Source of the DNA: Giardia intestinalis
Taxonomy: Eukaryota
Assembly: GCA_000002435.2 (NCBI GenBank)
Contig: AACB03000033.1
Direction: 5' to 3' (one strand)
DNA: 17,765 bases
Of the stretch, positions 1,892 to 3,718 are shown piece after piece. Below the pieces are notes generated by a model. The model was given only the letters and a program-made list of their open reading frames with translations. It searched no databases and was not told where the DNA came from. Each line of letters starts with the position of its first letter. The first letter of the stretch is position 1. The position numbers were made by a program, and so were the translations under genes.

Positions 1892-3718
1892 GTGATATGC
1901 ACACAGGCCAGTAATGGAGTATGCACTGCTTGTAATACAGATAGTCAGTACATATTCCAGAATGGGGCAGACAAGGTGACCCCTGGTGGGGAGTGCATCC
2001 TCTGTCATGATGCCACAGGAGCGAATGAGAACAAGGGAGTGGCCAACTGTCTCAAGTGCACGGCACCTGGTGGCAATACAGGAGCGGCCACGTGCACCGA
2101 GTGTCAAGATGGGTACTACATGGACTCTCAGGCATGTACCAAATGTGATGGTACTTGTCTGACCTGTGAGACATCGGCGACCCAGTGTACCTCTTGTAAG
2201 GGAAATACGTTCCTGAAGGATAATGCATGCGTGAATAGTGATGGATGCACTGGAAACACTTATGCTGACCCTATGACAATGACATGCAAGGAGTCTGGTA
2301 TAGCAGATTGCACCGCGTGTGAGTACAACACGACTGTCAGCAAGCCCCAGTGCACCGCCTGTAACAATAAGAAGGTGAAGACAGAGCTGGATGGGACAAC
2401 CACTTGCGTCGATGATGCTGGGTGCGCAACAGATAACGTCGACGGATCCCACTTTCTGAGTGATGATAGCACCAAGTGCATATTATGCAGTGATACAACA
2501 ACAGGAACAGAAGCAAACGACAAGGGGATTGCTAATTGTAAAACGTGTAAGAAGAACGGAGCCAAGCCGACCTGCTCAGCTTGCCTCGACGGATACTTTG
2601 GTTCTGATACATGCACAGCTTGCGGTGCCAACTGTGCTACATGCTCTGCTGCTGGCAATGATCAGTGCACTAAATGCAAGCCTGGATTCTTCATGAAACA
2701 ACCCGGCTCTGCTGGTAAGTGCTTCGCCTGCGACAGTAAAGCCGACAATGGCATCGAGGGGTGCTCCCAATGTAACAGCGGCCTAACCCCTACATGCACC
2801 GATTGCAAGTCCAACTATCGCAAGGAGGGAACCAATCCGGTGAAGTGCACAAAGGCCTGCGAGGACCCCACGGCCTGCGGGGGGACGTCTGGGGCCTGCG
2901 GGGCGGTCGTCGTTGACAGCGCCGGGGCGTTCTCCCAGTACTGCTCGCTGTGCGGAGACCCCGCCACGTTCCCCATCGATGGGATCTGCACAGGAACTAA
3001 GGGTGACAACACCTGTGCCAATGGCGTCTGCACCCGGTGTGCTGCCGGGTTCTTCCTGTACATGGGCGGCTGCTATGATGTGTCGAAGGCTCCTGGCAGC
3101 CACATGTGCAAGACTGCCGAGGGAGGGAGGTGCACCGCCCCCAGCGAGAACGGCCGGTACTTCCTGGTCCCGGGGGCATCCAATACTGATCAGTCTGTCC
3201 TGGCCTGCGAGAACCCCCTAGGCACACTAGTAGGCACTGGTGATACTGCTAAGGCATACGTGGGGGTACTCAACTGTTCACAGTGTACAGCCCCAGCAGC
3301 TCCATCTGATGGTGGCATGACTGCCGCCACGTGCACAGCGTGTACCAACAACAACAAGCCCAACCTGGCTGGGAGCGGGTGCTTCCCATGTACCGTTAGT
3401 GGATGCTCGCACTGTGGAGCAGGCGATAAGTGCGAGGCCTGTACCAGTAAAGACCAGAGGCCGAACACAGACGGAACGAAGTGCATCGCCTGCAATATCG
3501 ACGGGTGCGTCAGGTGCAGCGAGGAGAACAAGTGCGGCCAGTGCGGGGACGACTACAGGCTGGAGGGTGAGGCGTGCGTGTCCACCAAGCCCAGCGGGGG
3601 CAACAGAAGCGGCCTCAGTACTGGTGCCATAGCAGGGATCTCCGTGGCTGTCATCGCTGTCGTGGGGGGCCTCGTGGGCTTCCTCTGCTGGTGGTTCGTG
3701 TGCAGGGGGAAGGCGTGA
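1892..3718 (+). CDS. vsp: VSP-family protein, unit 2 (type B, 608 aa as called from GTG; no in-frame ATG at the 5' end).
   Basis: CXXC-rich with GGCY (FLYMGGCYDVS) and the CRGKA* tail. The N-terminal ~450 aa are unique (MICTQASNGVCTACNTDSQ...). The 3' ~500 nt (about 3220-3718) are near-identical to the type A units. Confidence 0.85.
   Translation: MICTQASNGVCTACNTDSQYIFQNGADKVTPGGECILCHDATGANENKGVANCLKCTAPGGNTGAATCTECQDGYYMDSQACTKCDGTCLTCETSATQCTSCKGNTFLKDNACVNSDGCTGNTYADPMTMTCKESGIADCTACEYNTTVSKPQCTACNNKKVKTELDGTTTCVDDAGCATDNVDGSHFLSDDSTKCILCSDTTTGTEANDKGIANCKTCKKNGAKPTCSACLDGYFGSDTCTACGANCATCSAAGNDQCTKCKPGFFMKQPGSAGKCFACDSKADNGIEGCSQCNSGLTPTCTDCKSNYRKEGTNPVKCTKACEDPTACGGTSGACGAVVVDSAGAFSQYCSLCGDPATFPIDGICTGTKGDNTCANGVCTRCAAGFFLYMGGCYDVSKAPGSHMCKTAEGGRCTAPSENGRYFLVPGASNTDQSVLACENPLGTLVGTGDTAKAYVGVLNCSQCTAPAAPSDGGMTAATCTACTNNNKPNLAGSGCFPCTVSGCSHCGAGDKCEACTSKDQRPNTDGTKCIACNIDGCVRCSEENKCGQCGDDYRLEGEACVSTKPSGGNRSGLSTGAIAGISVAVIAVVGGLVGFLCWWFVCRGKA

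Follow-up and report, generated by a model that had tools for sequence, protein, structure and literature searches.

The 17,765-nt stretch of Giardia intestinalis DNA analyzed here (contig AACB03000033.1 of GenBank assembly GCA_000002435.2; hereafter, the window) is very likely a linear array of silent, 5'-truncated cassettes of genes for variant-specific surface proteins (VSPs) from WB, or a very close relative of it, in G. lamblia assemblage A, in which a long 3' module shared by two types of units, A and B, is the footprint of segmental exchange. The window holds ten VSP units of 1.8-1.9 kb (U1 to U10), arranged head-to-tail, all on the + strand, and separated by spacers of 51-72 nt. Unit limits were set from the stop codons. 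The units fall into type A (U1, U3 and U9), type B (U2 and U10), type C (U4 and U8), type D (U5), type E (U6) and a D/A chimera (U7), and follow each other in the order A-B-A-C-D-E-D/A-C-A-B. U1 and U10 are cut by the window edges; as the window both begins and ends inside a unit, the head of the array, where a complete VSP preceded by non-coding sequence and an initiator would be expected, lies outside it.

The 3' module shared by type A and type B units

U2 (1886-3718, + strand), a type B pseudo-VSP unit, is a 610-codon open frame with neither ATG nor signal peptide, which opens at 'WSVICT', 51 nt past the preceding stop, and matches the Pfam VSP family PF03302 with E=3e-37. When aligned to U3 (3791-5653, + strand), a type A unit, U2 is 61.8% identical over positions 1892-3219 and 94.4% identical (471/499 nt) over positions 3220-3718. 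An earlier reading made from the letters and open reading frames (ORFs) of the window (the sequence-only reading) had set the start of a shared 3' block of ~165 aa at about 3220; a long block is indeed present, but near-identity begins ~115 nt later, at 3335, and extends over ~128 aa (3335-3718, + strand; 379 of 384 nt, or 98.7%, identical to U3). Upstream of it, positions 3220-3334 (+ strand) form a patchy transition zone, 80% identical to type A (92/115 nt). Over 3401-3718 a single difference was found, at 3544. Moving upstream from the stop, the identity of U2 to U3 is ~100% in the last 318 nt, then 98% in a stretch of 63 nt, 80% in one of 115 nt and ~60% further on. Counterparts of the U2 module lie at 1451-1834 in U1, 5270-5653 in U3, 12727-13110 in U7 and 16579-16962 in U9.

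The module includes the canonical transmembrane/CRGKA tail and, as had been proposed, reaches far beyond it, its 384 nt being more than three times the 117 nt (38 aa) of the tail. Over the tail itself U2 and U3 are identical at 117 of 117 positions, whereas U2 agrees with types C, D and E at 98-107 of the 117; the last 60-84 nt are identical in types A to D. At two variant sites in the block, 3386 and the codon at 3398-3400 ('FPCTVS'), U2 matches the WB VSP P0021, not type A.

Codons that specify the same amino acid in both members of a pair are informative with regard to the origin of the blocks. Between U2 and U3, such codons differ synonymously in 119 of 246 cases upstream (48%), in 9 of 31 in the transition zone (a fraction of 0.29) and in 1 of 123 in the block (1%). 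For the 5' block shared by U4 and U6, none of 59 same-residue codons differ, vs 101 of 236 elsewhere, and for the 5' block of U5 and U7 the figures are 4 of 130 vs 104 of 256. Selection at the protein level cannot erase synonymous differences and thus, these blocks share recent ancestry.

Concordant runs were evaluated by a GENECONV-like permutation test on 963 polymorphic, ungapped columns, with 2000 permutations. The longest runs comprised 82 sites for U2-U3, 180 for U4-U6, 76 for U5-U6 and 31 for U3-U5, against permutation maxima of 16-25 (20 for U2-U3); for these four pairs, and also for U3-U6, the observed run was reached in 0 of 2000 permutations. Moreover, the identity matrices of different segments are incongruent: {U2,U5,U7} and {U4,U6} group together at the 5' end, only {U3,U7} in the centre, and {U2,U3,U7} and {U5,U6} at the 3' end. 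The partners of U2 are U5 and U7 at its 5' end (85%) and U3 and U7 at its 3' end (94-95%), with none in its centre (57-61%). A heat map of a MAFFT alignment of the ten units, drawn in steps of 100 nt, showed sharp blocks; uniform divergence was not seen. Segmental exchange between units, which the sequence-only reading had anticipated, is borne out along four independent lines: by synonymous-site identity confined to blocks, by the concordant runs, by the incongruent matrices and by the U7 chimera (see below). Its picture of conserved ends around a swappable centre holds in part: the units are modular, but the ends come in several discrete types that are themselves swapped, and only the last 60-84 nt and the spacer are common to all units.

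U7 (11257-13110, + strand) is a two-parent D/A chimera. It is U5-like over 158 consecutive informative sites (11213-11622) and U3-like over more than 400 from 11631 onwards, with no reversal at the junction; the switch falls inside a shared 8-nt sequence, TATGCTGA (11623-11630), in the codons of a conserved YADPESGTC motif. U6 (9432-11195, + strand), the type E mosaic, consists of a C-type spacer and 5' module (9381-9781, 99.8% identical to U4), a centre of its own and a D-type 3' module (10831-11005, 98.9% identical to U5). As first noticed from the letters, another 3' module is common to units 5 and 6, with 173 of 175 nt identical between 9016-9190 and 10831-11005 and 339 of 365 when the comparison is carried to the stop; the observation that type C has its own 3' module also stands, and this module is distinguished by a 34-aa insertion. 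On a finer scale, the type A copies, which are 99.8-99.9% identical otherwise, differ in tight clusters. In U9 (15100-16962, + strand; type A), the seven informative sites of a 22-nt patch at 16503-16524 match type B (U2) at the same aligned positions, and in U7 a patch of four sites, at about 12678-12696, partly matches types D/E. Both clusters are short conversion patches of about 20 nt. The comparisons show that recombination has moved stretches between cassettes, from 22 nt to over 1 kb in length, and that modules are common to cassettes and intact genes (see below).

Probably silent, 5'-truncated cassettes in a linear array

All units belong to the VSP family. They score 129-135 bits against Pfam PF03302 (Giardia variant-specific surface protein; cut-off 31.4), and each has the cysteine-rich ectodomain of VSPs, with 12.0-13.2% Cys and 26-32 CXXC motifs. 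The stops at 1834, 3718, 5653, 7579, 9380, 11195, 13110, 15036 and 16962 close long ORFs on the + strand, and all nine complete 3' ends read ...GLVGFLCWWF(V/I)CRGKA*, the conserved C-terminal ~38 aa. A GGCY motif occurs once in each unit; the second GGCY, near residue 95 in full-length VSPs such as P0001, falls in the portion that is missing from the array units. When 5.8 billion proteins were searched, all the relatives recovered were Giardia VSPs. The semi-conserved N-terminal module of ~60 aa ('ICT...ECILC'), also described in the sequence-only reading, is present in all units, including U4, U6 and U8. The ORF list had suggested that these three units are devoid of the module. This was wrong; their frames open through it from 'WSEICT', and the list began at an internal ATG.

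The unit frames open directly past a stop, at 'WS(V/E)ICT...', 51-72 nt downstream of the stop of the preceding unit. In the alignment, this start falls at about residue 100 of full VSPs, for example of P0001, whose sequence begins with MLLIALHLVTSILA. What the array units lack, relative to full homologues, are these ~100 N-terminal residues, with the signal peptide and the first segment rich in Cys. As judged by eye and by alignment to full homologues, no unit has a start Met with a signal peptide, and the internal Mets have no hydrophobic leader behind them. In addition, the candidate VSP initiator PyAATGTT has no match on either strand of the 17.8 kb, with 2.7 expected by chance. In Giardia, the sequence AGTPuAAPy shortly past the stop is the poly(A) signal. 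AGTGAAT was found 8 nt past each of the nine stops (1842-1848, 3726-3732, 5661-5667, 7587-7593, 9388-9394, 11203-11209, 13118-13124, 15044-15050 and 16970-16976), and these nine sites are the only matches to the consensus AGTRAAY in the window. By these features, the units are promoter-less and signal-peptide-less cassettes, that is, a pseudo-VSP "linear array".

The layout of the spacer is alike after all nine stops. In the spacer at 3719-3790 (+ strand), for example, AGTGAAT is found 8 nt past the stop and is followed by a variable number of GTGATAG-like heptamers. There are 2-4 GTGATAG/GTGATAA-like heptamers per spacer and their number differs between units (e.g. 1835-1885, 3719-3790, 7580-7640 and 15037-15099); 23 of the 28 matches to GTGATA[GA] in the window are in spacers. 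The heptamers may represent sequence prone to slippage, or else what is left of the 'FMGGCY...PGSEICT' region that other arrays have and that is deleted here. We also note that the last three bases of AGTGAAT form, with the next base, an ATG ('MLY...') that serves as the start codon in old WB annotations of other array members, namely P0004, P0011, P0028 and P0121; since the annotated start sits in AGTGAAT, those 'N-termini' (MLYSDSDSAMWCGGDS...) are translated spacer.

The remaining units, all on the + strand, complete the array. U1 (1-1834; type A, its 5' end cut by the window edge) is 99.8% identical to positions 3821-5653 of U3. U4 (5705-7579) is the type C unit in which the 34-aa insertion marks the 3' module, and U8 (13162-15036), the second type C unit, is 99.5% identical to it. 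U5 (7641-9380) is the type D unit. The last spacer and U10 (16963-17765; the second type B unit, cut by the window end) differ from U2 by four single-base indels only. U10 is thus a second copy of the N-terminal body of U2, which had been regarded as unique; that view fails also in that stretches of 42-143 aa of this body are identical to other WB VSPs.

Several duplications extend over more than one unit. Positions 1-2639 match 15130-17765 at 99.3%, so that the A+B pair is duplicated across unit boundaries, and 3601-5762 and 14919-17071 form a near-identical duplication of a block made of a tail, a type A unit and the next spacer; the cross-boundary duplications are 97-99% identical. Multi-unit duplications that cross unit boundaries point to growth of the array by unequal exchange, and the higher-order repeat structure is consistent with unequal crossing-over of multi-unit blocks. 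Tandem Repeats Finder, with a period limit of 500 nt, found no repeat in the window; the unit period of 1.8-1.9 kb exceeds that limit. Long ORFs on the - strand overlap the VSP frames, e.g. at 1343-2452 (369 aa), 6942-7859 (305 aa) and 14494-15219 (241 aa); they probably arise because the repeated coding sequence is rich in G+C and poor in stops.

Blocks shared with VSP genes outside the array

WB genes outside the window were compared as proteins, and exact shared blocks of at least 30 aa were recorded against the fetched WB sequences. Blocks of 64-287 identical aa are common to units and to P0015, P0021, P0033, P0001 and P0002, the first four of which carry signal peptides. Residues 305-591 of U4 (287 aa) are identical to the complete WB VSP P0015 (748 aa, with a signal peptide), residues 40-181 of U6 (142 aa) to P0021 (720 aa, with a signal peptide), and the central block of U5, residues 252-421 (170 aa), to the complete P0033 (689 aa, with a signal peptide). 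The body of U2 shares identical blocks of 143, 125, 69, 53 and 42 aa with P0004, P0002 and P0001. From its first internal Met, the type A sequence of U3 matches P0019 (XP_001705784.1, G. lamblia ATCC 50803), with identical blocks of 258 and 166 aa. The identical stretches that units and complete VSPs have in common would fit a transfer from either side to the other, over evolutionary time.

The modules of U6 also recur in other combinations. Its ATG-initiated ORF (9576-11195) and the GenBank protein VSP S7 (AAN52102.1, P0062; 539 aa) are identical over 425 aa and then differ at 16 positions in the last 114; by this comparison, VSP S7 is a U6 body with a patched 3' module. If AAN52102.1 came from mRNA, a U6-like cassette would be transcribed. 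P0121 is a U6 body with other 5' and 3' modules, the switch being located at the GGCY motif.

The gene for P0003 (L001), which in isolate DH is a stand-alone VSP gene, was compared in its DNA and showed 95-98% identity to positions 2811-3226 of U2 and 95% to the A/B 3' module. The copies of this module in the A and B units of the array are 98.7-99.7% alike, which suggests homogenization within the array. The DH gene (L001 6300-8453, AHGT01000044.1) is flanked by a kinase/ankyrin gene and lies outside any array. It is annotated from a non-ATG start, as a 'partial' product whose first residues, VCRNHACSRT..., seem to be in another frame than the WB protein P0001; this looks like an annotation or frameshift problem at the 5' end of the record.

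Alternatives, mechanism and related systems

The block structure, or part of it, might be an artefact of the long-read assembly, with near-identical repeats mis-joined or consensus-blended; we consider this very unlikely. Assembly is difficult for arrays whose 1.9-kb units are 99% identical, and arrays are recorded as having broken the Sanger assembly (Adam et al., 2010; PMC2996952). In the window, U10 differs from U2 by four single-base indels (17091, 17650, 17696 and 17725), three of which in homopolymer runs, with 0 substitutions in ~800 nt, and the frame of U1 is shifted by an additional G near nt 21-23; differences between twin units that consist of nothing but single-base indels, and lie for the most part in homopolymers, are typical of an unpolished long-read consensus. 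Pseudogene decay was considered as the origin of the U10 frameshifts and rejected, as a pattern of homopolymer indels with no substitutions points to sequencing (long-read consensus) error rather than decay. Indels of this type also mean that an individual junction could be an assembly chimera. However, sequences obtained independently hold the same modules in other combinations (P0019 and P0121, both from the Sanger assembly of 2007, VSP S7 as a GenBank clone, and the DH gene), and the junction between the B body and the A tail of U2 is graded and has variants of its own, unlike a sharp, read-length join. Moreover, the ORF lengths 539-427-576 and 538-448-576-426 recur in the independent catalogue of Adam and co-authors, as those of vsp82-83-84 on chromosome 4 (539, 427 and 576 aa) and of vsp245-248 (538, 448, 576 and 426 aa) (Adam et al., 2010; PMC2996952). 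The ATG-to-stop ORFs of U6-U7-U8 match vsp82-84, and those of U6, U5, U4 and U3 match vsp245-248, a striking agreement, albeit one of lengths only.

It has to be regarded as highly improbable that the array is chiefly a template for RNA-based silencing, in which read-through or antisense transcripts feed an RNA interference (RNAi)-like pathway that limits VSP expression and the shared modules would allow many VSPs to be targeted from a single pool of small RNAs. The control of VSPs has been linked to an RNAi-like mechanism (review PMC8957917), the units have no initiator of their own and lie 51-72 nt apart on one strand, and long antisense ORF-like stretches are present, although expected in sequence of this kind. 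The poly(A) signal kept by each unit, however, would end read-through, the pseudo-VSP arrays of Giardia muris are essentially untranscribed (Xu et al., 2020; PMC7641422), and silencing alone leaves the block identity at synonymous sites unexplained, so that recombination would still be needed. Finally, it is hardly credible that purifying selection on a membrane-proximal protein domain kept the long 3' similarity with no exchange: across the family, conservation in VSPs is highest in the membrane-proximal part and the transmembrane/CRGKA tail (PMC2996952) and the C-terminal 140 aa of U2 are its best-scoring Pfam stretch, but the synonymous contrast within the same two genes (1/123 same-residue codons in the block vs 119/246 upstream) refutes it, and the 3' modules of types C, D and E are only 56-63% identical in nucleotide sequence to the A/B module on the same framework.

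Exchange among silent cassettes could operate as follows. The array grows by tandem duplication or unequal crossing-over, and the 60-84 nt at the very end of the units, which do not vary, would form with the poly(A) signal and the spacer a perfect homology anchor on one side. A conversion tract would extend upstream from this anchor over a variable distance and end in a conserved motif of the Cys framework; an anchored tract with a variable upstream end would account for the 100%/98%/80%/60% gradient of U2. At the 5' end, the spacer and the 'ICT...ECILC' N-terminal module may act as an anchor in a like manner. Unequal crossing-over and non-reciprocal conversion are not separable from these data.

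Some points weigh against our interpretation, or limit its reach. The D/A junction of U7 and the order of the units rest on a single assembly that has homopolymer indels typical of long-read consensus errors, the agreement with vsp82-84 is by ORF lengths only, and the comparison with WB genes outside the window is at the protein level only. Neither the direction of transfer nor any transfer into an expressed gene can be read from these sequences. The essentially untranscribed state of the pseudo-VSP arrays in G. muris (PMC7641422) fits a silent archive but says nothing of donation. Moreover, the switching of VSPs is reported as epigenetic or post-transcriptional and not recombinational (PMC2996952, PMC8957917); thus, any role of the array would be in diversification of the repertoire and not in switching. 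The comparisons demonstrate exchange within the silent archive and in the evolution of the genome; it might also generate expressed diversity.

Segment exchange in this array is real, well supported and already known. Its principle was published in 2010, as, very probably, was this very array. In WB, over half of the vsp genes are in linear arrays of up to 10 members, with spacers of ~60 bp on average and all downstream members without the initiator (Inr; PyAatgTT), and subsets of genes share 3' regions of 234-657 bp with significant recombination by GENECONV; the array units were proposed to be recombination cassettes or discarded genes (Adam et al., 2010; BMC Genomics 11:424, PMC2996952). 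The window shares with those arrays its head-to-tail units, ~60-bp spacers, lack of downstream initiators, near-identical pairs inside the array and shared 3' regions, and differs in nothing essential; it is uninterrupted over ten units. The number of head-to-tail units on one strand, tens of bp apart, that make an array has been set at two or above by Adam et al. (2010; PMC2996952), and Xu et al. (2020; PMC7641422) ask for more than three. What is made explicit here, relative to the WB arrays as described (PMC2996952), are the swaps of 5' and 3' modules, the U7 chimera and the synonymous contrast.

The pseudo-VSP arrays of G. muris similarly consist of VSP copies with no signal peptide, which in that species are untranscribed, and phylogenies suggest recombination or segmental gene conversion between G. 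muris pseudo-VSPs and intact VSPs (Xu et al., 2020; PMC7641422). The G. muris arrays differ in that almost all are adjacent to telomeres, oriented tail-first to the chromosome end, and have a CRGK tail, whereas the arrays of G. intestinalis are not preferentially telomeric (PMC7641422). The short spacers and the lack of an Inr in the window are also features of pseudo-VSPs in later papers, and a preprint from 2022 considers incomplete VSPs as a possible sequence reservoir.

The array also resembles the variant surface glycoprotein (VSG) gene arrays of Trypanosoma brucei, which are likewise silent, often incomplete archives of antigen genes with conserved 3' ends. T. brucei has a big archive of silent, often incomplete VSGs in arrays, in which the 3' ends and upstream repeats provide homology for segmental conversion, leading to mosaic genes. 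There, however, conversion into an expression site is an experimentally shown mechanism of switching, whereas in Giardia conversion is deduced from sequence only. The pilS genes of Neisseria, the vls cassettes of Borrelia and the msp2 pseudogenes of Anaplasma are promoter-less, 5'-truncated cassettes with conserved flanks that exchange segments with a full-length gene. In contrast to what is seen in the Giardia array, those systems rely on one dedicated locus of expression and on a bacterial recombination machinery, and laboratory work has shown their conversion to be unidirectional.

By extension, the array could be an active donor archive: over a chronic infection, or in long culture, segments of its cassettes would be copied into complete VSP genes. 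We regard this as unlikely, and no report of real-time formation of mosaic VSPs in Giardia was found in the literature searched. The copying would be anchored on the invariant 3' tail, the spacer and the conserved motifs of the Cys framework. If true, such an archive would make mosaic VSPs and so extend antigenic variation past the ~136 intact genes, in the manner of the mosaic VSGs of T. brucei. VSPs are the antigens whose variation lets Giardia persist in the gut, and are also candidates for vaccines; how many antigenically distinct coats the parasite can make depends on its ~200 incomplete VSP copies, which may be dead remnants or else modules stored for use. The window provides an unusually clean, contiguous illustration of the movement of modules between cassettes, and between cassettes and intact genes.

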